Program-made: the position numbers and the translations under genes
The notes under the pieces: model-generated
What the model was told of the DNA's origin: nothing
Databases searched by the model: none
The model's input: only the letters and a program-made list of their open reading frames with translations
From: an uncultured Gammaproteobacteria bacterium
GTDB lineage: Bacteria > Patescibacteriota > Patescibacteriia > Magasanikbacterales > UBA922
Length of the DNA: 44,376 nucleotides
NCBI GenBank assembly: GCA_964603435.1
Contig: CAZRUM010000001.1
Location: 27,045 to 71,420 of the forward strand
Direction of reading: 5' to 3'
Part shown: one piece after another, positions 1,550 to 41,196 of the stretch
How positions within the stretch are numbered: position 1 is the first letter of the stretch
Layout of the letters: each line of letters opens with the position of its first letter

Positions 1550-3373
1550 ATGCCTGCATTCAATAATAAAAAAAAGTTATTTGGATTGTTCTTAATACTA
1601 TTTTTTTTACTATCTTTTTTTAATATCGGACAGACCCAGGCAGCTAATAAAAAAGTCGCAGTTATTGGTTCCTCTACTTTTGACAGAGGTTGCAATACTC
1701 CTACTGGTTTTGTAAAAATATTAGCAAAGGAACTACCAAATTATAATTTCGTTTGTAAAGTTGGCAATGAAAAACTAGCCTTACAAAGCAAAAATTCTAC
1801 ATTTTTTTTAACTCAATTTCAAAATTATGTCAGTAATAAAGGATACGATGAATTATTACTTTATGCTGATCTAAATGGTCTATCTAATGCAGTTACCTTG
1901 AAAAGATCCCAAAAAAACCTCGCCACTATTATTCAATCTGCCAAAAGCCAAGGTATGCGTGTAATTGTGGTGGGGGCTCAACCAGCCAAAGGTTATGGCA
2001 AGGTTAATGACACATGGATAAAAAATATAAAATCTAATAACAATTTCCTGGCTACAAAACCATATAATATAGATATTTTTATTGAAGTATATAGTGTTGT
2101 TGACAAAAATAACGACGATTTTTTAGATGAAAATCTAACAACTGATAAAATTCATTTAAACCCTGACGGCAATAAAATTTTAGCCGACTTACTTCTAACT
2201 CAAGCTTATGGTACGGGAAGTACATCACAAATTCAAATTATACAAAATACAAGACCTGCCGGTGATAGCGAAAACGGTTTTCGTCTACTAGAACCACAAA
2301 CAGTTATTACACTACCTGGCTTAAACTTTACCCCCATAGATTTTGTCAAAAAATATAGTGGCATAGATGAAAGCGGTCAATATTTATTTTTTCCTTATAT
2401 CGGAGAATACTTATCAGCAATTTATAAATATGGCATAGTAGCAGGTGGTGTAGTGGCCATAGTGATGATTATTATTGCTGGTTTTCAATGGACCACCTCT
2501 GGTGGTAACGCAACTCAGACTCAAAAAGCTAGAACTAGAATCACCCAAGCTATAGCAGGCCTAATACTACTAGTTGGTTCATATTTTATACTCTACACTT
2601 TAAATCCAAACCTTGTCACTTTCAAAAATCTAAAAGTTTTATATATACCAATAGACAGCTTGGAAAGAAATGTGATTGTTAATAATGGCACTTTCAAATA
2701 TACTACACCATCTACTGGAATTGTTGGAACTGGCTCAGCTAAAAAAATAGAAAATGAAACTTTTGATGATACTTTCAAAGCCTTTGCTAATTGTGTCGGA
2801 GCTGACTGGAGAATTCTAAAAGCTTTTGCCTACAAAGAATCTAAGTTAAATCACACTATAGACAATAAAAGAGGATTTATAGGTCTTTTTCAAACCAATT
2901 CTAAAAATTGCCGTGAGTCTCTAAAAAAATATCCAGCATGGGCAGCTCTATGTGGTGACATGACTAACCCAGCAGTAAACACAGCAGTCGGCGCAAAGAT
3001 GCTTGGATTAGGTATGGCTAATATTGAAAAAAGATGTGGTGATATACCAAAAAGAGATGCCGCAGCACTATTTTATCTAAATCATAACAGTGGTTATTAT
3101 GCAGTTACCTGGATAATAAAAAATGGAAATGCCTGCAAAGGTGAAATTTTTGTAAAGAAAAGCATAATTGATTTTTGGAACCAACATAAAAACGGAATAC
3201 ACAAAGGAAAACTTATGGGTGAAATTAGAGGTCCTTATGCTTATGCTACGGCTGACCTAACCTTACAACTAGGAGTAACAGATTTTCATGATACTTCTGG
3301 TAACAATAACTTTGAATGCCCCTCAACGGTAGCCCTGAAGATTTTGAAAATTTTCTTAAAGCAAGAGCTTTGA
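1550..3373 (+). CDS. Secreted fusion: SGNH hydrolase + two-TM pilin (TrbC/VirB2-like) + lytic transglycosylase (SLT) domain
   Basis: Signal peptide; VIGSS and DKIH SGNH blocks; pilin segment AGFQWTTSGGN…KARTRITQAIAGLILLVGSYFILYTLNP; SLT motifs AYKES, GLFQ, NHNSG. Confidence 0.75.
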   Translation: MPAFNNKKKLFGLFLILFFLLSFFNIGQTQAANKKVAVIGSSTFDRGCNTPTGFVKILAKELPNYNFVCKVGNEKLALQSKNSTFFLTQFQNYVSNKGYDELLLYADLNGLSNAVTLKRSQKNLATIIQSAKSQGMRVIVVGAQPAKGYGKVNDTWIKNIKSNNNFLATKPYNIDIFIEVYSVVDKNNDDFLDENLTTDKIHLNPDGNKILADLLLTQAYGTGSTSQIQIIQNTRPAGDSENGFRLLEPQTVITLPGLNFTPIDFVKKYSGIDESGQYLFFPYIGEYLSAIYKYGIVAGGVVAIVMIIIAGFQWTTSGGNATQTQKARTRITQAIAGLILLVGSYFILYTLNPNLVTFKNLKVLYIPIDSLERNVIVNNGTFKYTTPSTGIVGTGSAKKIENETFDDTFKAFANCVGADWRILKAFAYKESKLNHTIDNKRGFIGLFQTNSKNCRESLKKYPAWAALCGDMTNPAVNTAVGAKMLGLGMANIEKRCGDIPKRDAAALFYLNHNSGYYAVTWIIKNGNACKGEIFVKKSIIDFWNQHKNGIHKGKLMGEIRGPYAYATADLTLQLGVTDFHDTSGNNNFECPSTVALKILKIFLKQEL

Positions 3374-26482: not shown

Positions 26483-27484
26483 TTATTCTGACCACTGATA
26501 ATTAGTAAGTGCCCACTTGGCAATATCGCGAGCTTCGGTAAAGCGAGCTTCGTGACTATCTGTACCCAAGACCACTACATCTACCAAATGCCCATTCCCC
26601 ACTCTCATACAAAAATTATAACCAGAAGCATTGATAAAGCCAGTTTTTCCACCATAAAAACGTTCGAAATCATGTTCTACCCAACCAAGCAAGAGCCAAT
26701 CTGTATTCCACATATGATGTGACTTACTTCTTTCTTCTGAATACAAATTTTGTTCTTTTGTCAACAATGCTTCTTGAATCTTGGGATATTTCAAAACTTC
26801 GTTTAATAAAATTACTATATCTGAGGCCGAAGCCACATTGGTCTCATCCAAACCTGTTGGGTCAGTAAAGTGGGTTTCTGTCATACCCAGTTCTCTTGCC
26901 TTTTGATTCATCCGCTCTACGAAAGCCTCTATCGGCCAGTCCAAAGCATTAACCAAAGACAAGATTGCCTTATTAGAAGACGCCACTAAACCGGCTAGCC
27001 AGAGCTGATCCAAAGTATATACATCTCCCTGATACACATGAGTACCAAGTGAATCCTCTCCCACAACCACAGTACTAGTAGTCCAATCCGGATGTTTTTC
27101 GAGTATCACCAAAACGCTCATTAGTTTGGTAATACTTGCCATTGGCCATTTATCATATTCTTGTTTTTTATAAAGAACCATACCAGTTTTCACATCTTTG
27201 ACAATCATACTGTGAGCACTAAATTGACTCGAATCTGGTATTTCTCCAGTTACCAATGGTAATTGTGGTTTTACTGGTAAAGGTGGCTCTACCACAATAT
27301 CGCCACCTATTTTTTCACCAACGTTTTGCAAAGGTTGCAAAACTTTATTTAAAATACTACTATTTTGAAAATCAATTTTTTGAATTGTAAAACCACCAAC
27401 AGCTATTATAATTACAAAAATAGCCACTAGATTTCTCCACGCGCTTGATTTATCTTTAGCAACTTCAACTTCTAAAAAATTCAT
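26483..27484 (-). CDS. D-alanyl-D-alanine carboxypeptidase (peptidase S11)
   Basis: ASITK (SxxK), SSN (SxN), GKTG; N-terminal TM. Confidence 0.92.
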   Translation of the reverse strand: MNFLEVEVAKDKSSAWRNLVAIFVIIIAVGGFTIQKIDFQNSSILNKVLQPLQNVGEKIGGDIVVEPPLPVKPQLPLVTGEIPDSSQFSAHSMIVKDVKTGMVLYKKQEYDKWPMASITKLMSVLVILEKHPDWTTSTVVVGEDSLGTHVYQGDVYTLDQLWLAGLVASSNKAILSLVNALDWPIEAFVERMNQKARELGMTETHFTDPTGLDETNVASASDIVILLNEVLKYPKIQEALLTKEQNLYSEERSKSHHMWNTDWLLLGWVEHDFERFYGGKTGFINASGYNFCMRVGNGHLVDVVVLGTDSHEARFTEARDIAKWALTNYQWSE

Positions 27485-32988: not shown

Positions 32989-34422
32989 TTATTTTTTATC
33001 AATTTTGACTTTTAGGTCTTTCAACTGATCTTCCGGAACCTCAGATGGAGCTTCCATCATCAAATCTTTGGCGTCAGCTGTCAATGGAAAAGCTATCACC
33101 TCACGAATAGTATCTTCTGCTTGTAATATAGAAAGCATTCTATCAAAACCAGGAGCCATACCTCCATGAGGAGGTACTCCATAGGTAAATGCTTCTAACA
33201 TATGACCAAATTCTTGTTTTTTCTTCTCGTCAAAACCAATAAGATCAAAGACTTTTTCTTGTATATCTCTATCATAAATTCGAAGAGCTCCCCCACCAAC
33301 TTCCACACCATTTAAAACTAGATCGTGCTGATAAGATTTTACTTTACTAGGATCTGTATCTAATAAAGAAAGATCCTCTTCTTTTGGTCTAGTAAACATA
33401 TTGTGAGCTGGTGCCCATTTACCAGAGCTTCCATGGAAGTGATCTTCTGATCCTTTATCTTCTGTTTGAGGTTCAAACAATGGCCAATTAACAATAAAAG
33501 CAAAAGCTAATTCATCTTTGTCTTCTTTATTTTTTCTAAGATCTGGTTTATCAGTACCATATTTATCCATTACTTCTTGCCATTCTAGTCTTGGCCATTT
33601 TTCAAAAGTCATTTTCTTTTCCGGCCAAAGTTCTTTAATCATTTTAGTAAACATTTCTTCTACTAAATCCAAAATTTCACCCTGACTCATAAAACTCATT
33701 TCCATATCTAGCTGATAAAATTCTCCTGGTGATCTGTCGGCTCTGGCATCTTCATCACGAAAACACGGTGCAATCTGAAAATACTTTTCCATACCAGCTA
33801 CCATGAGCAATTGTTTATATTGTTGTGGAGCTTGTGGTAAGGCAAAAAACTGCCCTGGAAACTTGCGAGATGGAACTAGATAATCTCTGGCTCCTTCTGG
33901 AGTTGATTTTGACAATATCGGAGTGTGAATTTCATTGAAATCTTGACCATGTAAATGACCACGCAAAAAAGCCATCATTTTGGAACGCATTATCATATTA
34001 TTTTTCATTCGCTCTGAACGTAAATCTAGATAACGATATTTCAAACGCAATTCTTCATTAATAACTTTTGTATCTTTATCAATTTCAAATGGAGGTGTTT
34101 TACATTCACTCAACACTTTCAAACCTTTGGCTAAAATTTCAACATTACCAGTCGGCATGTCTGGGTTTTTTTGCCTATCTCCACGTTCTTGGACAATACC
34201 AGTGATTTCAACCACCCACTCTGGTCTAACACGTGTTAACTCCTCTTGTGAGGCTTCATCTAGCTCTGCTGGCACGCCCACAACCTGGACAACACCTTTC
34301 ATGTCACGCAAATCTAAAAACGCAATTTTGCCCATATTACGACGGGCATTGACCCAACCTTTTAGTAAGACTTCTTTACCTACCATTTCAGAAGTTTGTG
34401 TAGAATAAATTCTCTCATTCAT
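32989..34422 (-). CDS. aspS: Aspartate--tRNA ligase (short, no GAD domain)
   Basis: YRYLDLR, TPEGARDYLVPSR, CFRDEDARADR, GVPPHGGMAPGFDR. Confidence 0.95.
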   Translation of the reverse strand: MNERIYSTQTSEMVGKEVLLKGWVNARRNMGKIAFLDLRDMKGVVQVVGVPAELDEASQEELTRVRPEWVVEITGIVQERGDRQKNPDMPTGNVEILAKGLKVLSECKTPPFEIDKDTKVINEELRLKYRYLDLRSERMKNNMIMRSKMMAFLRGHLHGQDFNEIHTPILSKSTPEGARDYLVPSRKFPGQFFALPQAPQQYKQLLMVAGMEKYFQIAPCFRDEDARADRSPGEFYQLDMEMSFMSQGEILDLVEEMFTKMIKELWPEKKMTFEKWPRLEWQEVMDKYGTDKPDLRKNKEDKDELAFAFIVNWPLFEPQTEDKGSEDHFHGSSGKWAPAHNMFTRPKEEDLSLLDTDPSKVKSYQHDLVLNGVEVGGGALRIYDRDIQEKVFDLIGFDEKKKQEFGHMLEAFTYGVPPHGGMAPGFDRMLSILQAEDTIREVIAFPLTADAKDLMMEAPSEVPEDQLKDLKVKIDKK

Positions 34423-34484
34423 ATAAAAAAAATAAGGTTATTTAAATATTGTATATATTTTAGCATATCTCAATTGATTTTACA

Positions 34485-34523
34485 ATTAAAAAACCCTCTG
34501 TTTTTTATGAAAAATAAAGGGTC
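34485..34523 (-). terminator. Probable terminator after the rRNA methyltransferase gene
   Basis: ACCCTTTATTTTT-CAT-AAAAAACAGAGGGT followed by T-tract on the minus strand. Confidence 0.5.
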
Positions 34524-34538
34524 ATTTTTTGGCTTATC

Positions 34539-35555
34539 TTAGCCTTTTTTTAGCAATTTTACCACAAAAAACCCTTCCATCTCTTTATCAGGCATAATGC
34601 GTAAAGATTTTTTAACAACGTCCTTATTTATTTCCTTATTTTTGAATATTTTTACAATTGGCAACCTCGCTACATCCAAGTCAATTGGAAGTATTTCACA
34701 ATTACTCGTATGTTCTACAAATTTACTAATTTGCAATTCATTTTCCTCTGGAGCAAAAGTACAAGTAGAATAAACTAAAACTCCTCCCGGTTTAAGAGCT
34801 CCCCAGGCAGATCTCAACAAATCTGATTGTTTGTGTGCCATTTCTTTAACTTTTTGCTCGTTCCAATAAGAAAAACTCTTAGGTCTATCAACCAAAAATC
34901 TAGCTTCTGCACTACAAGGTGCGTCAAGCAAAATTTTATCAAAATACTCTGGATATTCTTTACCAAGTACTACTCCATCCTCCGAACGAAGAGTAAATTG
35001 CCAATCATCGAGCTCCCCCTCTATAACGGCAGACGAGTTTACCACACCCAACAATTCCATATTATGTTTCAACTTCAAAAATCTTATTCTATTATTATCA
35101 TTAGCGACTAGCTCACCTTTTCTCACCCCCTCTGAATCAGACATCAAAGCGGCAATTTGTGAAGTTTTACTTCCAGGAGCGGCGGTCAGATCCAAAACTT
35201 TTTCTCCGGACTGAGGAGATAAAACTAACGGAGGGACCATGCTAGCTAAACTCTGCAAATAAATTTTACCTGTCTTATAAATATCCAAATCAAGTATGTC
35301 TTGTTTCCACTTGTTTTGCAAAATAAAAGCATCTTTATACCAAGAGACATCTTTGAGTTTGAAACCATTTTCTAATAATATCTTTTCAATATCTTGTCTT
35401 GTTGTTTTTAAACTATTAGCACGAAAAGTAATTGGTTTCTTTACAAAAGTAGACTTAATTTCCTCAGACAAAGAAACACCAAACATTTCTGTCAGGCGTT
35501 CTAAAAAAATTTCTGATATAGAAGTAGATTGTTTTGTTTTTTTATTTTTTCCCAT
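34539..35555 (-). CDS. RsmB/RsmF (NOL1/NOP2) RNA m5C methyltransferase
   Basis: YLQSLASM, LDLTAAPGSKT, ILLDAPCS, LVYSTCT, EGFF. Confidence 0.92.
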   Translation of the reverse strand: MGKNKKTKQSTSISEIFLERLTEMFGVSLSEEIKSTFVKKPITFRANSLKTTRQDIEKILLENGFKLKDVSWYKDAFILQNKWKQDILDLDIYKTGKIYLQSLASMVPPLVLSPQSGEKVLDLTAAPGSKTSQIAALMSDSEGVRKGELVANDNNRIRFLKLKHNMELLGVVNSSAVIEGELDDWQFTLRSEDGVVLGKEYPEYFDKILLDAPCSAEARFLVDRPKSFSYWNEQKVKEMAHKQSDLLRSAWGALKPGGVLVYSTCTFAPEENELQISKFVEHTSNCEILPIDLDVARLPIVKIFKNKEINKDVVKKSLRIMPDKEMEGFFVVKLLKKG

Positions 35556-35582
35556 AGAAACACAAAATCCCATTAACCATGA

Positions 35583-36878
35583 TTATGGCTTGAGACGATT
35601 TACCAATCTAGGAAACAGGGTACATTCACGAATATGTTCTGCCCCAGATATCCAACGTACAGTTCTTTCAATGCCTATACCAAAGCCACTATGTGGCACA
35701 GAGCCATATTTTCTAAGATCAGTATACCATTTGTAATCTTCTTCACTTAAATTATCTTCTTTGATGCGTTCTGATAATAAAGCAAAATCATCCTCACGTT
35801 GTGAACCACCAATCAGCTCCCCTGCCCCTTCAATTCCAATCAGATCACTATTCAAAACTCGTGAATCATCTTCCTTATCAATCTTCATATAAAATGGTTT
35901 GATATTTTTTGGCCATTTTTCTATAAAGACTGGCACATCAGAATCTTTCGTAAGCAAACCTTCATCGTCATTTCCCAAATCTTCTCCATGTTTTATATCA
36001 CTACCCACCTCATTTAATTTTTTGATAGCTTCATCATAAGTATAACGAGTAAATGGTTTGTCCATCATTTTTTCCAATGCAGCAGTATCACGTTCTAGAA
36101 TTTTAAACTCTGCCCCACAATCTGCTAAACATTTTTTAACAATGGCTTTTACCAGACCTTCTTGAATATCCAAGTTTTCATCATGTTCTACAAAAGCAGC
36201 TTCTGCATCCATCATCCAAAATTCTGTTAGATGACGCTTGGTAGTAGATTTTTCTGCTCTAAACACTGGACCAAAATCATAACAACGCCCCACTGAAGAA
36301 ATGGCTGCTTCAATATAAAGCTGTCCAGATTGAGATAGATAAGCTTCACCTAGATCAAAGTATGGCACAGGGAATAAAGTAGTAGTCCCTTCACAAGCAT
36401 TTGGAGTAAAAATTGGTGAGTCAGTTCTAATAAAACCAATAGTATGAAGATATTCATTTACAGCAGTTTCAATCACATCACGAATACGTAAAATTGCCCA
36501 CTGTTTTTTTGAGCGAAGCCAAAGATGACGATTGTCTGATAAAAATTCTGGACCATGTTCTTTTAATGCAATTGGATATTCTTCTGCCAATTGAATAATT
36601 TTAAAATCCGTTACTTGAAGCTCAAAGACACCTTCTTGCTTTGGGTGAGCTACCACCTTTCCACTAGCTTCCAAAGATGACTCTTGGGTTATTTTCTCGA
36701 CCTCTTCCCACATCTCTTCTGCTAAATCACTTTTGGCAGCCACAGCCTGGACAAAACCAGTACCGTCACGCAATTCCAAAAAAGCTAATTTTCCAGATGA
36801 GCGTTTGTTGTATAGCCAGCCTTTAATTGTAACTTCGCTATCAACATGACTAGAGATATCTTTTATAAATGTCTGCAT
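35583..36878 (-). CDS. asnS: Asparagine--tRNA ligase
   Basis: NRHLWLRS, YLSQSGQLY, FRAEKS, HLTEFWM, GGSQRE, YGSVPHSGFGIGIER; start at MQTFIK. Confidence 0.96.
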   Translation of the reverse strand: MQTFIKDISSHVDSEVTIKGWLYNKRSSGKLAFLELRDGTGFVQAVAAKSDLAEEMWEEVEKITQESSLEASGKVVAHPKQEGVFELQVTDFKIIQLAEEYPIALKEHGPEFLSDNRHLWLRSKKQWAILRIRDVIETAVNEYLHTIGFIRTDSPIFTPNACEGTTTLFPVPYFDLGEAYLSQSGQLYIEAAISSVGRCYDFGPVFRAEKSTTKRHLTEFWMMDAEAAFVEHDENLDIQEGLVKAIVKKCLADCGAEFKILERDTAALEKMMDKPFTRYTYDEAIKKLNEVGSDIKHGEDLGNDDEGLLTKDSDVPVFIEKWPKNIKPFYMKIDKEDDSRVLNSDLIGIEGAGELIGGSQREDDFALLSERIKEDNLSEEDYKWYTDLRKYGSVPHSGFGIGIERTVRWISGAEHIRECTLFPRLVNRLKP

Positions 36879-36900
36879 ATTTTTATGTTTAAGTATAATT

Positions 36901-36929
36901 ATATTAACAATTTTAGCTAATTTTAGCAA
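36901..36929 (-). promoter_or_regulatory. Probable asnS promoter
   Basis: TTGCTA-17 nt-TAATAT with extended -10 TGT. Confidence 0.5.
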
Positions 36930-37008
36930 GGTTTGGTTCCCACCATTGGACACATTCCGAACTATGGAGTGGGAAAGGATGTCTGGTTGGATAAAACCTA
37001 GTATTTAT

Positions 37009-37506
37009 TCATCCTACAAATACTGAGTAATGTTTGTTGATGTTATCCATTAAAGACACCGGTACTACTTTATCAGCAGATTCACAAAAAAAGTTAAACA
37101 ACGGCATCACCTCACAAGTTAAGCCTTTGACATCCCATGGTCTATTCTCATCATTTGCATCCAATCTAAAAGTCGTGAGATGACCCACTTCTTTATCCGC
37201 ACGGTTTTTTGCTCTCACAAGTGTTTCACTTAAATCTGACCTGATTTCTTCCCAAGTCTCTTTTTTAATAAAAAAATTCTTTGCGCACACATCAGTATCT
37301 CTTACTTCACCTGGTGGGTAAAGAAAATTAATCAGATTACGCAGATGAATCACATATGATTCAAGAGTCATGTACTCTAATCCCCGTGTAATTTGAAATT
37401 CTTCTGCTATTGCGTGTGTCGCATTTAATAACATTTGAACTTCATACCTTACGTGTTCCTTAAAGTAATCTAATAATTGTTCTTCACTTAAATCTTTTGT
37501 TTTCAT
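37009..37506 (-). CDS. Hypothetical helical protein, possible HEPN-like RNase
   Basis: LESYVIHLRNL and RADKEVGH (Rx6H); sits at the tRNA-Asn 3' end. Confidence 0.6.
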   Translation of the reverse strand: MKTKDLSEEQLLDYFKEHVRYEVQMLLNATHAIAEEFQITRGLEYMTLESYVIHLRNLINFLYPPGEVRDTDVCAKNFFIKKETWEEIRSDLSETLVRAKNRADKEVGHLTTFRLDANDENRPWDVKGLTCEVMPLFNFFCESADKVVPVSLMDNINKHYSVFVG

Positions 37507-37558
37507 ATTGATTAATCATAACAAAAAAGAAGCAAACCGTAAAGTTCGAATCCAGTCG

Positions 37559-37631
37559 CTCCCCCAGCTGGGTTTGAACCAACAACCTCTGCGTTAACAG
37601 CGCAGCGCTCTACCAATTGAACTACAGGGGA
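37559..37631 (-). tRNA. tRNA-Asn(GTT)
   Basis: TCCCCTG/TGGGGGA acceptor stem, CTGCG-CTGTTAA-CGCAG anticodon arm, GGTTCAAACCC T arm; CCA not encoded. Confidence 0.94.
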
Positions 37632-37639
37632 ATAAAAAT

Positions 37640-37665
37640 AAAAAACCCGCTTGTTTAGCGGGATT
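37640..37665 (-). terminator. Attenuator terminator upstream of tRNA-Asn
   Basis: ATCCCGC-TAAACAA-GCGGG-TTTTTT ending about 8 nt before the tRNA. Confidence 0.82.
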
Positions 37666-37688
37666 TTAGTAATTTTTTATATATAAAA

Positions 37689-37742
37689 CTACATCCCGCA
37701 AGCGGTATTATTATTGTTATTATTGTTATTTAATAGTTTCAT
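37689..37742 (-). CDS. Asn-rich leader peptide MKLLNNNNNNNNTACGM
   Basis: 17-codon ORF with 8 consecutive AAT/AAC codons; its 3' part GCGGGAT can pair with the terminator 5' arm. Confidence 0.85.
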   Translation of the reverse strand: MKLLNNNNNNNNTACGM

Positions 37743-37746
37743 ATGT

Positions 37747-39066
37747 TTATATTGTAGTAGACTTTAGGCTGTTTGTCAACCTATCTATTCTAATCTTGTA
37801 AGAATCTATATCTAAATTTCCTGCCGCCCCTAAAGATACTTTTGATTTTAAATTATTTTCAACATCCACCTCGTAATCAGCAAACTTTTCAGATGCTTGC
37901 TTGTAGGCATCTCTGAACGGTAGATTCTCTTTCAAAACCAACTCGTTTGCATAATCTGCCATAAAAATATCTTTATTGATATTACTCTTTATTTCTTCTC
38001 CATTTGGTTTTATTCCCTTCAGTACCACACCTACAACCTCTATAGTATCTAGGATAATCTTAATGCTTTCAAATAAAGGTTTTTTCATAAGCTGGCTTTG
38101 TCTATTGTAACCAGAGACAATTCCATTATTCAGATTTTTTAACATCATTTGATTGGCCGAAATTACTTCTGCCTGACCTTTTACAATTTCCAGCACATCT
38201 AGATTTTTCTTGTGAGGCATAATACTCGAACCCGTCACGATATTATCATGAACTGAAAAATACTTACATTCTTGAGAGGTAAAAAACAACATGTCAGTAG
38301 CAAATCTCGACATTGTCATCATAACCTGAGACAGACCCTCCATCATCATACTCTCATACTTTCCTTTTCCCGCCTGACAATAGAGAGAATTGACTTGTAT
38401 ACTTGCAAAACCTAGATTCTCAGTTGTGTTTTTTCTATCAAGCGGGATATTCACTCCAAACCCAGCAGCAGAACCCAGAGGATTTTTGTCTATCAGTTTT
38501 TGTATTGAATCTAGATAATCAATATCATCTAGAATACTTTCCAAAATACTTGCCATATAATGTCCCACACTAGAAAGCATAGCTTGTTGGGTATGAGAAT
38601 AACCTGGTAGAGGTATCTGTTCGTGACTCTTAGCAAAGTTAAAAAACTTTTGTGCTAACCCCAAATAATTTTTCTTTACCTCTTTCAACTTATTTTTCAT
38701 ATAGAGTCTCATAGCTACCAAAACCTGATCATTCCTACTTCTGCCAGTATGAATTTTTTTACCCACGTCTCCCAGCTTTTCTACTAAATAATTTTCAATT
38801 ACAGTATGACAATCCTCATCTTCAATTTTTATTTCTATTTTCCCACCTTCCCAATCTTTTTTAATCTCACCTAGAGCTGTTTGTAATTGTTCATTTTCCT
38901 CACCCGAAATAATTCCTATTTTCTCCAACATCTTGGCGTGAGCCTGGCTAGCTTCTACATCATAAAGAAACAATTCTTTGTCCCAAATAAAATCTTCACC
39001 CACAGTATATTTTTCAATACTTGGGTGTAACACCACATCATCTTTTTGCCAAAGTTTTTTATTCAT
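37747..39066 (-). CDS. argH: Argininosuccinate lyase
   Basis: IHTGRSRNDQV, PGYSHTQQA, PLGSAAG, TGSSIMPHKKNLD, PFRDAY. Confidence 0.96.
   Translation of the reverse strand: MNKKLWQKDDVVLHPSIEKYTVGEDFIWDKELFLYDVEASQAHAKMLEKIGIISGEENEQLQTALGEIKKDWEGGKIEIKIEDEDCHTVIENYLVEKLGDVGKKIHTGRSRNDQVLVAMRLYMKNKLKEVKKNYLGLAQKFFNFAKSHEQIPLPGYSHTQQAMLSSVGHYMASILESILDDIDYLDSIQKLIDKNPLGSAAGFGVNIPLDRKNTTENLGFASIQVNSLYCQAGKGKYESMMMEGLSQVMMTMSRFATDMLFFTSQECKYFSVHDNIVTGSSIMPHKKNLDVLEIVKGQAEVISANQMMLKNLNNGIVSGYNRQSQLMKKPLFESIKIILDTIEVVGVVLKGIKPNGEEIKSNINKDIFMADYANELVLKENLPFRDAYKQASEKFADYEVDVENNLKSKVSLGAAGNLDIDSYKIRIDRLTNSLKSTTI
37751..37779 (-). promoter_or_regulatory. Promoter of Asn leader/tRNA-Asn, inside the argH 3' end
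   Basis: TTGACA-17 nt-TACAAT ending 8 nt before the leader ATG. Confidence 0.8.
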
Positions 39067-39071
39067 ATACT

Positions 39072-40346
39072 TTAATTCTTATTTAATTCACCTTCAAAAT
39101 CATAAACATTATAAGCTGTCTTTTGTGCCATAGTATATAACTCAATAAAACCAGGTGAAGCATTTTGATTGAATTTCGGATCTTTATTGAATGTTGCCAA
39201 ACTCTCATCAAACAAAGAATAAGGTGAAAACAAAGCTGTAACTGTAATATTACCTTTATACAATTTTATTTTTGCCTTACCTGCCACCTTTTTATTCTGA
39301 CTATTAATAAAAGCATGGATATGATACATGACTGGGTCATACCACTTGGCACCATAAGTAAGATATGACCATTTTGTATCCACAAATTCTTTCAGTTCAT
39401 TTTCCTCTCTGGTAGATACTAATTGCTCCAATTTTTTATGAGCTGAAATGAGCATTGAGGCACCAGGGTTTTCATATATACCTCTAACCTTAAGCCCCAC
39501 AATTCTATCTTCTATCAAATTGAAAACTCCTACCCCATGCTTTGCTCCAATTTTATTACACTCCATTATTATTTCGCTCAGTTTTTTCTTTTCACCATTT
39601 AGCGCTACAGGTATACCTTTTTTGAATTCAACTTCAATAATCTCGGCTTCATCTGCAGAATTTTCTACAGTTTGACACCATTGCAAAATATTTTCCAAAG
39701 GTGGTTCTAATTCTGGATTTTCTATTTCCCCACCCTCACCAGTATTACTCCACATATTTTCATCATAAGAATATGGTGAATCTTTTTTTTGCTTTACTTC
39801 AATACCGTGTTTAACGGCATATTCTAATTCTTCTTCCCTGCCCATACCCCACTCCCTCACCGGTGCAATTATTTTGATATCTGGATCAAGTGTAGTCATA
39901 TAACCCTCAAATCTCACCTGATCATTACCTTTGCCAGTACAACCGTGAGCTATTACCTGACAACCATGTTCCTTGGCAACTTTGATAGCCACCTTGGAAA
40001 TTACAACTCTACCCAAAGGGCAACCCAGTGCATAGCCACCCTGATAGTCAGCATTGGCTTTGATAGCTTCTGACAACATCACATCGGCAAATTCGTCTTT
40101 AGCGTCATACACAATCACCTCGCTAGCCCCTAATTTCAAACCCTTCTCCTTTATCTCTTCTAGATTATCAGCAGTTTGACCAATATCAATGGTAAGGGCT
40201 ACTACCTCACAATTATATTCTTCTTTTATCCACTTGAGCATGACTGAAGTATCAAGCCCGCCAGAATAAAGTAAAAGACATTTATCAAATTCACCTTTTT
40301 TAGCTTCATAAGAAGCAATTTTTTTGTAATTATTTTGTGTATCCAT
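39072..40346 (-). CDS. argG: Argininosuccinate synthase
   Basis: YSGGLDTS, HGCTGKGNDQVRFE, YSYDENMW, IEDRIVGLKVRGIYE. Confidence 0.97.
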   Translation of the reverse strand: MDTQNNYKKIASYEAKKGEFDKCLLLYSGGLDTSVMLKWIKEEYNCEVVALTIDIGQTADNLEEIKEKGLKLGASEVIVYDAKDEFADVMLSEAIKANADYQGGYALGCPLGRVVISKVAIKVAKEHGCQVIAHGCTGKGNDQVRFEGYMTTLDPDIKIIAPVREWGMGREEELEYAVKHGIEVKQKKDSPYSYDENMWSNTGEGGEIENPELEPPLENILQWCQTVENSADEAEIIEVEFKKGIPVALNGEKKKLSEIIMECNKIGAKHGVGVFNLIEDRIVGLKVRGIYENPGASMLISAHKKLEQLVSTREENELKEFVDTKWSYLTYGAKWYDPVMYHIHAFINSQNKKVAGKAKIKLYKGNITVTALFSPYSLFDESLATFNKDPKFNQNASPGFIELYTMAQKTAYNVYDFEGELNKN

Positions 40347-40435
40347 ATATTTCTATTATTAGATTAATTATACTATTTAGCTTACCAATACCATTGCCAA
40401 ATCGGTTATGATAAAAGATTTGCCTCACGACAAAT

Positions 40436-40465
40436 AAAAAACCTCTCTCGTAAGAGGAGGTTTTT
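40436..40465 (-). terminator. Attenuator terminator upstream of argG
   Basis: AAAAACCTC-CTC-TTAC-GAG-A-GAGGTTTTTT. Confidence 0.82.
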
Positions 40466-40486
40466 AAAGTTTGTAAATATACTAAA

Positions 40487-40546
40487 CTAACCAACTCTTA
40501 CGGAGAGGAACATACGACGACGGTTATTTAGTAAATAATTTTTCAT
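40487..40546 (-). CDS. Arg-containing leader peptide MKNYLLNNRRRMFLSVRVG
   Basis: 19-codon ORF with CGT-CGT-CGT; its CGTAAGAG is complementary to CTCTTACG of the terminator. Confidence 0.83.
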   Translation of the reverse strand: MKNYLLNNRRRMFLSVRVG

Positions 40547-40555
40547 AACAAATCT

Positions 40556-40584
40556 AGTTTAGCAACTATTTAATTTTATGTCAA
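40556..40584 (-). promoter_or_regulatory. Promoter of Arg leader/argGH
   Basis: TTGACA-17 nt-TAAACT with extended -10 TGC, ending 9 nt before the leader ATG; -35 overlaps the last recO codons. Confidence 0.78.
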
Positions 40585-41196
40585 GTTTACAATCTTACCC
40601 CAATCCCCAACTTTCCTATCAGTATTAAAAACCAAAGCTTTGTAAATAAAATTATGAACTTGTTTATTATATTCTAATTTACTTACAGCCTGCCAATTTC
40701 CCTCAGACAATTCTTTTAGCCCCACCTTCACACTAGCAGAGGCTTTTTCTAATTCTGTAATATCAAAACCTAACAAAATTAATAATTTAACAAAAAAACT
40801 ATCTAATAAAGTTTGATATTTAGATTCTGAAGTCTGAAGGCTAACGAATTCAAGCCAACTCAAAATTAAATTAAAAATATCTTGATCTTTCTCACCTTCA
40901 TGTAATATTTTATCGAGGGCTGACATTACAAACCCAGCTGATAAACTTTTTTGTAAATCACGTCTGATATTGGAAAAATAATTCACAGGCTGGGCTGCAC
41001 CGAGATACGCAATCCCCTTCCCAGAAATAATTTCTAAATCTACGAAAGAAAACGGCTCTAAATGAGCCGAATTTTTACTAGTTATTTTTTTTACTCCCCG
41101 TGCAAGAACTTCCAGTTTTCCTTTTTCTAAAGTATAGAATGAAATAATCTGATCGTTTTCTTTTATGTCACGGCGAGAGAGGATGAGAGATTGCAT
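40576..41196 (-). CDS. recO: DNA repair protein RecO
   Basis: ENDQIISFYTLEKGKLEVLARGVKKITSK, HLEPFS OB-fold N-terminus. Confidence 0.9.
   Translation of the reverse strand: MQSLILSRRDIKENDQIISFYTLEKGKLEVLARGVKKITSKNSAHLEPFSFVDLEIISGKGIAYLGAAQPVNYFSNIRRDLQKSLSAGFVMSALDKILHEGEKDQDIFNLILSWLEFVSLQTSESKYQTLLDSFFVKLLILLGFDITELEKASASVKVGLKELSEGNWQAVSKLEYNKQVHNFIYKALVFNTDRKVGDWGKIVNLT

Follow-up and report, generated by a model that had tools for sequence, protein, structure and literature searches.

On the minus strand of contig CAZRUM010000001.1, within the 44,376-nucleotide (nt) stretch analysed in this study (positions 27,045 to 71,420 of the contig, hereafter referred to as the window), the argH gene is followed by a self-contained element of ~140 nt, its promoter included, which leads directly into a gene for tRNA-Asn. 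The argH open reading frame (ORF; 39066-37747, with a match to Lyase_1) terminates at a TAA codon (37749-37747), and its final codons harbour the promoter of the element, a point absent from the first-pass annotation of this DNA. The -35 hexamer, TTGACA (37774..37779), is located inside the 3' end of argH and is separated by a 17 nt spacer from the -10 hexamer, TACAAT (37751..37756); with a score of 11/12, this is the top promoter-like site across positions 34000-41000. Eight nt past the -10 hexamer, and 4 nt past the argH stop codon, an ATG at position 37742 opens a short ORF (sORF; 37689..37742) encoding MKLLNNNNNNNNTACGM, whose codons read ATG AAA CTA TTA (AAT AAC AAT AAT AAC AAT AAT AAT) ACC GCT TGC GGG ATG TAG, i.e., eight of its 17 codons specify Asn. 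This layout is near-leaderless, the space ahead of the ATG being too short for a Shine-Dalgarno sequence.

The eight-codon AAT/AAC run (37707..37730) represents the proposed sensing site and is followed by the parts of a putative RNA switch, all on the same strand. Segment 1 (CCGC, 37702..37705) is a weak candidate partner of segment 2 (GCGGGAUGUAGUUUU, 37685..37699), which constitutes the 5' strand of a predicted antiterminator, overlaps the last three sORF codons and contains the stop codon TAG (37691-37689). Segment 3 (AAAAUUAC-UAAA-AUCCCGC, 37658..37676), which provides the 3' strand of this antiterminator, lies beyond the sORF, in which region the sequence up to the terminator hairpin includes an AU-rich stretch, and its last 5-6 nt form the 5' arm of a predicted intrinsic terminator (37640..37662). 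The latter consists of a hairpin with stem CCCGCU/AGCGGG and loop AAACA (37662-37646) and a run of six T residues (37645-37640). Eight nt past this T-run begins the tRNA-Asn(GTT) gene (37558..37631), which was identified by ARAGORN and by the Rfam tRNA model (60.9 bits), and which does not encode the CCA end. The first-pass annotation had already described this series of promoter, ATG spacing, sORF, terminator and tRNA-Asn(GTT), and each component was recovered where it had been placed. Furthermore, sequence comparison supports the core of that annotation, according to which an Asn-codon leader ORF selects between antiterminator and terminator ahead of the cognate tRNA gene: the element is likely to be a ribosome-mediated, near-leaderless, Asn-specific leader-peptide attenuator whose feedback would act on tRNA-Asn and, in certain lineages, also on asparaginyl-tRNA synthetase (AsnRS).

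Conservation of the leader and its reading frame

The genome to which the window belongs (designated G000) comprises 903 kb with a GC content of 35.9% and is 97.5% complete. A run of at least five AAY codons occurs exactly once on both strands of this genome, namely in the leader. Furthermore, the genome possesses 43 tRNA genes, one of which is for tRNA-Asn, and this gene alone was found to be preceded by an sORF of cognate codons with a terminator-like hairpin immediately behind it; a scan of all 43 genes returned no convincing cognate-codon leader before any of the others. The leader layout is thus not due to chance.

A DNA search of 61 genomes, i.e., that of the window and 60 relatives, returned a match in 44 of them, with several matches extending from the ATG through the terminator and into the tRNA. 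Among the 32 loci that were fetched first, 27 carry tRNA-Asn(GTT), and 25 of these 27 exhibit the same build: TTGACA-17-TAnnnT, a nearby start codon, an Asn-run sORF, a G-rich stop region, and a GC hairpin with a T-run. Alignment of 25 leaders with MAFFT, followed by RNAalifold, yielded merely 5 consensus pairs (-0.33 kcal/mol) with the stems out of register, and a covariance model, designated R1, was therefore built from the 25 leaders with a hand-set terminator, whereupon the leaders were realigned. At a cut-off of E <= 0.01, R1 matched 83 of the 151 order genomes searched, in almost all cases at a single site; in the genome of the window it returned one strong match (E 9.4e-12), the next best being at 0.11. 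These matches are distributed over families f1 (40/58 genomes), f4 (37/59), f8 (4/7) and f2 (1/2), while none was obtained in families f3 (6 genomes), f6 (5), f7 (4) and f9 (7). The fetched R1 matches within the order are linked to tRNA-Asn, located 95-212 nt past the ATG, in 27 of 29 cases, the other two being situated at contig ends.

Beyond the order, R1 matched 23 of 151 genomes of the class and 9 of 151 genomes of a phylum sample, 7 of the latter lying outside the class. The 22 class loci that were first fetched include 15 with a poly-Asn sORF and tRNA-Asn, one with tRNA-Asn and no sORF, and six weak and empty matches. A number of candidates were rejected, i.e., the weak matches L083-L086, L088 and L091, which possess neither tRNA-Asn nor an sORF; the weak matches L156 and L159, in which neither leader nor target was seen; L162 and L163, which are not leaders; and L090, in which tRNA-Asn is present and no qualifying sORF was found.

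The distribution was also assessed with a sequence pattern (five AAY codons, 70-100 nt, GTAGTT, 17-20 nt, CTGTTAA) that was scanned over ~185,000 species genomes, one per prokaryotic species, and which returned 62 loci. The record titles of 36 of these name Patescibacteria lineages: 14 Magasanikbacteria/Magasanikiibacteriota, three Kuenenbacteria, three Komeilibacteria, one Uhrbacteria, one Kerfeldbacteria, one Parcubacteria group and 13 'Patescibacteria group'. A further 24 (among L094-L153) are titled 'uncultured Gammaproteobacteria'; the five that were checked are all genomes of 0.9-1.3 Mb, and L094 and L104 correspond, by contig and coordinates, to G155 and G131, both members of the window's own Patescibacteria order, which indicates that the 'Gammaproteobacteria' title is unreliable for at least those two. 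None of the 62 loci derives from a lineage credibly named other than Patescibacteria. These titles agree with the assumption of the first-pass annotation that the organism belongs to the CPR. Since the pattern is strict, 62 represents a lower bound within the group and is no proof of absence elsewhere. Pooling of all fetched loci resulted in 125 loci with an Asn-rich sORF before tRNA-Asn, and the 100 distinct loci among them, selected on precisely this feature, form the set referred to below as related loci.

In all 100 related loci the sORF is in frame and encodes 12-29 amino acids (median 17), with 5-10 Asn residues in 99 loci and 18 in the remaining one. The Asn codons vary synonymously (487 AAT and 180 AAC), and breaks in the run always consist of whole codons. 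Upstream of the sORF, a promoter scoring at least 9/12 is present in 93 of the 100 loci, the -35 hexamer being TTGACA in 71, and the start codon is mostly located 8-9 nt past the end of the -10 hexamer. A terminator was found in each of the 100 loci, its stem ending a median of ~12 nt before the tRNA.

The 62 pattern loci were chosen without regard to start or stop codons and nonetheless all possess an in-frame ATG or GTG with an ORF of at most 30 amino acids; in 55 of them, a promoter scoring at least 9/12 ends 4-12 nt before the in-frame start. In a frame-blind version of this analysis, the best promoter was selected at each locus, followed by the first start codon located 4-14 nt past its -10 hexamer, both of which were available in 55 of the 62 loci. 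The Asn run is in frame with the start codon picked in this manner in 52 of the 55 and out of frame in three, compared to a chance expectation of one third. The first-pass annotation had made its reading depend on the run being kept in frame in relatives, and these counts are consistent with that expectation.

Folding, switch geometry and predicted mechanism

The complete leader folds at -28.4 kcal/mol (z = -5.25). The 2:3 antiterminator formed by segment 2 (37699-37685) and segment 3 (37676-37658) has a predicted energy of -15.0 kcal/mol (z -5.2), and none of 200 shuffled sequences folds as well, while the terminator fold reaches -11.2 kcal/mol and is equalled by one of 200 shuffles. When segments 1-3 are folded jointly, the 2:3 helix prevails. 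In an alignment of 85 leaders (A2), which was fitted to the terminator stem and therefore favours it, 92.2% of the stem cells are paired and 126 cells carry double changes; none of 500 shuffles reaches this level of pairing, and controls in which the stem was slid along the alignment attain at most 52.6%.

The antiterminator was examined by an alignment-free method, in which the duplex energy between the stop-codon window and the terminator 5' arm was computed for each locus with its own arm and with the arms of other loci. Across the 100 related loci, segment 2 pairs with its own terminator arm at a mean of -10.20 kcal/mol, compared to -7.01 kcal/mol with the arms of other loci, a difference reached in none of 20000 permutations; a version of the test on 25 loci gave -9.56 versus -7.38 kcal/mol, again with 0/20000 permutations. 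The covarying stems that the first-pass annotation had proposed to look for in related genomes are thus found, in that the terminator covaries and the antiterminator strand changes from locus to locus in step with the terminator arm.

The position of this strand relative to the sORF is also conserved. When the whole leader is searched, the best complement of the terminator arm starts between -18 and +6 nt relative to the final nucleotide of the stop codon in 97 of the 100 loci and ends no more than 13 nt past the stop codon in 98. In 99 loci, the first Asn codon is located at least 16 nt upstream of segment 2, and the gap between the last Asn codon and segment 2 is mostly 6-11 nt. With the stop codon at segment 2 and the Asn run upstream thereof, a ribosome at the stop codon would mask segment 2, whereas a ribosome within the run would not.

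The following mechanism is proposed on the basis of these comparisons. Transcription would be initiated at a strong sigma-70-type promoter and, judging from its spacing, the RNA would start at the AUG or within ~3 nt of it, the predicted start in the window being at the ATG or 1-2 nt ahead of it, and the leader peptide would be translated from a leaderless or near-leaderless mRNA. The ribosome would reach the 5-8 Asn codons after ~4-8 other codons. If Asn-tRNA-Asn is ample, the ribosome would proceed to the stop codon on or beside the G-rich segment 2, thereby masking it; the 3:4 terminator would then form, and RNA polymerase would stop 8-20 nt before the tRNA. If AAU and AAC are decoded slowly, because tRNA-Asn is scarce, insufficiently charged or perhaps incompletely modified, the ribosome would stall within the Asn codons, at least 6-11 nt short of segment 2, which would leave segments 2 and 3 to pair (-15.0 kcal/mol in the window, versus -11.2 kcal/mol for the terminator). 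The terminator would then not form, and the tRNA would be transcribed and later cut from its precursor. The predicted outcome is that charged tRNA-Asn exerts negative feedback on the synthesis of its own tRNA.

A number of points weigh against this interpretation, in part or as a whole. The first of these concerns the trp-type part of the design: 1:2 pairing in the window amounts to 3 base pairs (CCG/CGG, -2.8 kcal/mol), and 39 of 200 shuffles perform as well, while over the 100 related loci the 1:2 helix has a mean energy of -3.97 kcal/mol, compared to -2.24 kcal/mol for shuffled sequences, and surpasses 95 of its own shuffles in just 25. Secondly, counted column-wise on the fitted alignment A2, the best antiterminator diagonal is ~55% paired; this count failed because segment 2 is out of register across loci, which leaves the alignment-free test to carry the antiterminator. 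Thirdly, 68 of the 151 order genomes lack an R1 match, and in two of the 27 tRNA-Asn loci fetched first (L027 and L030) a plain promoter directly precedes the tRNA, indicating that the element is dispensable. Fourthly, the 100 loci were selected for an Asn-rich sORF before tRNA-Asn, such that their other features are the informative ones, and the pooled loci are related and hence not independent. In addition, leaderless or near-leaderless translation of the sORF is deduced from the spacing, and transcribing more tRNA would not, on its own, make up for a lack of the amino acid. No RNA run was listed as containing the region 36800-38400, the 12 runs that were listed being on record as DNA.

Of the trp/his/thr-like geometry described in the first-pass annotation, the 2:3 and 3:4 helices are therefore borne out, while a strong trp-type 1:2 protector helix finds support neither in the fold of the window nor in its relatives. 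The design appears better described as one in which a ribosome at the stop codon occludes the antiterminator than as a trp-like 1:2 arrangement. Given the weak 1:2 pairing and the more stable 2:3 fold, an untranslated leader should default to read-through, unlike that of trp.

Predicted regulated genes and alternative explanations

The attenuator is best explained as controlling the single tRNA-Asn gene, with asnS as an additional predicted target in some relatives and as the target instead of the tRNA in another class. An alternative, which we regard as unlikely, accepts the same attenuator and holds that its relevant output consists of downstream protein genes, i.e., asnS and perhaps aspS, the tRNA being a passenger or a processing signal. 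In the window, asnS, encoding asparagine--tRNA ligase (35583..36953, minus strand; NCBIfam 514.8 bits against a cut-off of 414), has its likely ATG at 36878, 680 nt past the tRNA, in keeping with the ~0.7 kb reported by the first-pass annotation. It is followed on the same strand by an rsmB/F-like methyltransferase gene and then by aspS, and the interval from the attenuator to asnS yielded no terminator-like site; asnS is thus a possible further target of read-through in the window, although a promoter-like stretch precedes it. Among 95 loci, 16 have asnS past the tRNA in the same orientation, and in nine of these 16 it starts 42-235 nt from the end of the tRNA. In addition, control of a synthetase gene by a leader peptide has precedents in pheST and hisS, which are discussed below.

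A protein-coding output is also favoured by family f118, which belongs to another class and in which a leader of the same kind (e.g., MKSVFVNDNNRNNNRTS or MKTQRNNNFDANNNWA, with a terminator) is located directly before asnS in L154, L155 and L161. With the NCBIfam asnS model (cut-off 414), the ORF of L155 reaches 529.4 bits, while those of L154 and L161 were assigned by their AsnRS-like N-terminal sequence; in a fourth f118 genome (L160), the leader precedes tRNA-Asn. Against an exclusively protein-coding output, tRNA-Asn is the sole constant neighbour of the leader in the 100 related loci, and in 79 of 95 loci asnS was not found in the downstream sequence examined. Moreover, a terminator-like site occurs within 130 nt past the tRNA in 31 of 92 loci, and the next long frame lies on the opposite strand in 22 of 92. 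The two kinds of predicted target are the macromolecules that jointly make Asn-tRNA-Asn, and this constitutes the strongest functional argument that the leader reads the decoding of Asn.

A second alternative, to which we assign an even lower probability, is that of a conserved RNA switch that operates without a ribosome, by binding a protein, a tRNA (in a T-box-like manner) or a small molecule, and in which the open frame is incidental. An antiterminator/terminator pair would suit any sensor, and no Shine-Dalgarno sequence precedes the ATG. However, all variation in the run consists of synonymous AAT/AAC exchanges and whole-codon interruptions, the run is in frame with a start codon located 4-14 nt past the -10 hexamer, and the in-frame stop codon is pinned to segment 2. 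Upstream of segment 2, furthermore, the ~100 nt leader contains no conserved structured domain. No Rfam 15 family reaches its gathering threshold for the leader: the best match is to Trp_leader (RF00513, 29.4 against 41 bits), with Phe_leader (RF01859, 23.5 against 55 bits) and Thr_leader (RF00506, 21.3 against 55 bits) also below threshold, and a T-box match is absent among the 16 Rfam matches up to E = 10 in the region 36800-38200.

It is most improbable that the locus merely combines an ordinary argG-argH terminator with a chance ORF, the tRNA having its own promoter and the AAT/AAC run being AT-rich low-complexity sequence: the promoter and the sORF ATG do abut the end of argH, the genome is AT-rich and similar terminator sequences occur elsewhere in it, yet argH is upstream in only one of 95 loci, in which set the upstream genes are not conserved while promoter, sORF and terminator persist, the AAY run is the sole one of its length in 903 kb and keeps its frame in 52 of 55 loci, the stop codon falls on the antiterminator strand in 97 of 100, and no credible promoter site is present between terminator and tRNA. 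With regard to the last point, a promoter-like site scoring at least 10/12 ends 12-26 nt before 15 of the 43 tRNA genes of the genome, whereas the best such site between the sORF start and tRNA-Asn scores 7/12 in the window, and the corresponding score is at most 8/12 in 95 of the 100 related loci, which points to the leader promoter as the one on which tRNA-Asn depends.

The availability of asparagine in this organism bears on what the predicted leader-peptide attenuator of tRNA-Asn might achieve. The genome encodes GatB, AsnRS and the aspartyl-tRNA synthetase AspRS, while AsnA and AsnB were not found in it, the only Asn_synthase-like matches being NadE and MnmA; free Asn is therefore probably imported, or Asn is made on the tRNA. 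EpmA accounts for the third class-II D/K/N paralogue in the genome. The aspS gene (32989-34422, minus strand), located two genes beyond asnS on the same strand, encodes a protein of 477 amino acids that matches the 590-position bacterial model in two stretches and is shorter than that model. Conversion of Asp-tRNA-Asn to Asn-tRNA-Asn by GatCAB is the pathway of Thermus and Deinococcus. Should AspRS also charge tRNA-Asn in the present genome, which is conceivable from its gene content and rather doubtful, tRNA-Asn would act as the scaffold for Asn synthesis, and its gene would be regulated in the manner of an Asn-biosynthesis gene. Production of more tRNA-Asn upon stalling at Asn codons would in that case raise Asn synthesis itself, and the element would be the first attenuator with an RNA as its biosynthetic output, charged tRNA setting the transcription of its own gene in a closed loop.

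Between tRNA-Asn and asnS, the window contains an ORF of 165 amino acids (37009..37506, minus strand) that matches no family in Pfam or NCBIfam. Of 95 loci, that of the window is the only one in which this ORF was found beyond the tRNA; it thus lies outside the conserved unit and is probably an insertion. Distant HEPN-like structural matches (Atlas neighbours) were obtained for this ORF below threshold.

On the other side of the element, transcripts from argG-argH would, in this genome, presumably also enter it. A second leader of the same build is located before argG (ATG 40346), at 40436-40584 on the minus strand. It consists of TTGACA-17-TAAACT (10/12), an ATG 9 nt later (40546) and an sORF encoding MKNYLLNNRRRMFLSVRVG, which includes CGT CGT CGT and whose stop codon falls within a stretch complementary to the 5' arm of a terminator (CCUCUU-ACGA-GAGAGG plus six U residues, 40457-40442); the fold has an energy of -30.5 kcal/mol (z = -4.6). 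This leader may attenuate argG-argH in response to Arg. No conserved copy of it emerged when the DNA of the 151 order genomes was searched, the matches spanning just 24-60 nt. Across the genome, the combination of promoter, ATG, sORF and terminator was found in only four candidates, i.e., the Asn leader, the Arg leader, one on contig C43 and one on contig C3. The C43 candidate (2868-2990, plus strand) has a promoter-proximal sORF encoding MIVQRQKFYSFFFMNLP, with four Phe residues, and a terminator (AATCTGC-TGGACT-GGCAGATT plus six T residues), and is followed by an ORF of 164 amino acids without an assigned function.

Unusual tRNA arrangements were observed past the attenuator in several relatives. 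In L014 (G023:C2) and in L024/L056 (G012:C2), a tRNA is located inside a tRNA: an outer tRNA-Asn-like gene breaks off in the 5' strand of the anticodon stem, where ~95 nt are inserted, and resumes at the anticodon loop, and the insert comprises a 9-base-pair stem (TCCCGATAA/TTATCGGGA) around a complete inner tRNA-Asn(GTT). L054 (G142) exhibits a spacing of 170 nt, as in these nested loci. In L007 (G026:C16) and L031 (G001:C11), what follows the attenuator is a fragment from the 5' part of tRNA-Asn, interrupted by two GC hairpins (both TCCGCC-NNN-GGCGGA); an intact tRNA-Asn is located ~100 nt beyond this fragment. Following the nested tRNA, L056 (1799-1858, G012:C2) furthermore carries a second Asn-rich sORF, MKHLYTNNNNQNNIFSYGM, which ends in GGGATGTAG like the leader of the window and which is succeeded by a degenerate T-run hairpin and an ORF encoding a membrane-like protein of 198 amino acids. 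Among the tRNA genes of the window's genome, ARAGORN also reported a tRNA with a two-letter anticodon and no assigned amino acid (C5 6138-6208), a tRNA-Ile(AAT) (C13 10171-10247) and a tRNA-Ile(TAT) (C12 3940-4015).

Comparison with known attenuation systems

To our knowledge, every known leader-peptide attenuator controls protein-coding genes, and, apart from growth-rate control and the stringent response, little is known about how individual tRNA genes are regulated in bacteria. Neither an Asn leader peptide nor an attenuator before a tRNA gene was found in open-access papers and bioRxiv, supplementary attenuator lists being outside the scope of that search. The Asn leader is a real, conserved cis-regulatory element that has apparently not been described. 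It would add Asn to the amino acids sensed by leader peptides, and the sensed molecule, charged tRNA-Asn, would feed back on the synthesis of its own backbone. It would also represent a family of cis-regulatory RNAs that is specific to Patescibacteria. Few regulators have been recognised in these organisms, whose genomes are ~1 Mb in size and most of which cannot be cultured on their own.

The classical attenuators (trp, his, thr, leu, phe and ilv) share with the Asn leader a short ORF that contains a run of the sensed codon, mutually exclusive antiterminator and terminator structures, and a stop codon that allows the terminating ribosome to block the antiterminator. It is the hairpin part of the element that accounts for the weak Rfam matches to Trp_leader, Phe_leader and Thr_leader, all of them below threshold. 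In contrast to these systems, the Asn leader is predicted to sense Asn, its product is a tRNA gene rather than enzymes, and its hosts are Patescibacteria; it is also near-leaderless, without a Shine-Dalgarno sequence, and its 1:2 helix is weak. As predicted from its sequence, the element meets the structural criteria of classical attenuators with the exception of a strong 1:2 helix and a Shine-Dalgarno-led ORF.

Closer functional parallels are found among the leaders of synthetase genes. In E. coli, pheM-pheST is a leader-peptide attenuator of a synthetase gene. The His leader before hisS/hisZ in bacilli is likewise presented as a leader-peptide attenuator of a synthetase gene in PMC2965389. 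In these systems, as proposed for the Asn leader, charged cognate tRNA is read via the speed of the ribosome and a component of charging is regulated, and the f118 leader before asnS is their direct counterpart. They differ from the Asn leader in amino acid and lineage, and in that the regulated part in most Asn-leader loci is the tRNA itself, which would close the loop. T-box leaders also sense the charging of one tRNA and switch between antiterminator and terminator before charging or supply genes; however, a T-box binds uncharged tRNA through a structured leader of at least 200 nt without translation, whereas the Asn leader measures ~100 nt and is built on an ORF.

With regard to its near-leaderless layout, the Asn leader most closely resembles the polycysteine sORFs of mycobacteria, which bioRxiv 10.1101/834739 describes as leaderless and as Cys-responsive attenuators. 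Both systems place a codon run for a single amino acid at the 5' end of the transcript, while they differ in amino acid, in phylum and in their targets, which are protein operons in the mycobacterial case. The Asn leader suggests that near-leaderless translation is used for regulation in Patescibacteria as well.

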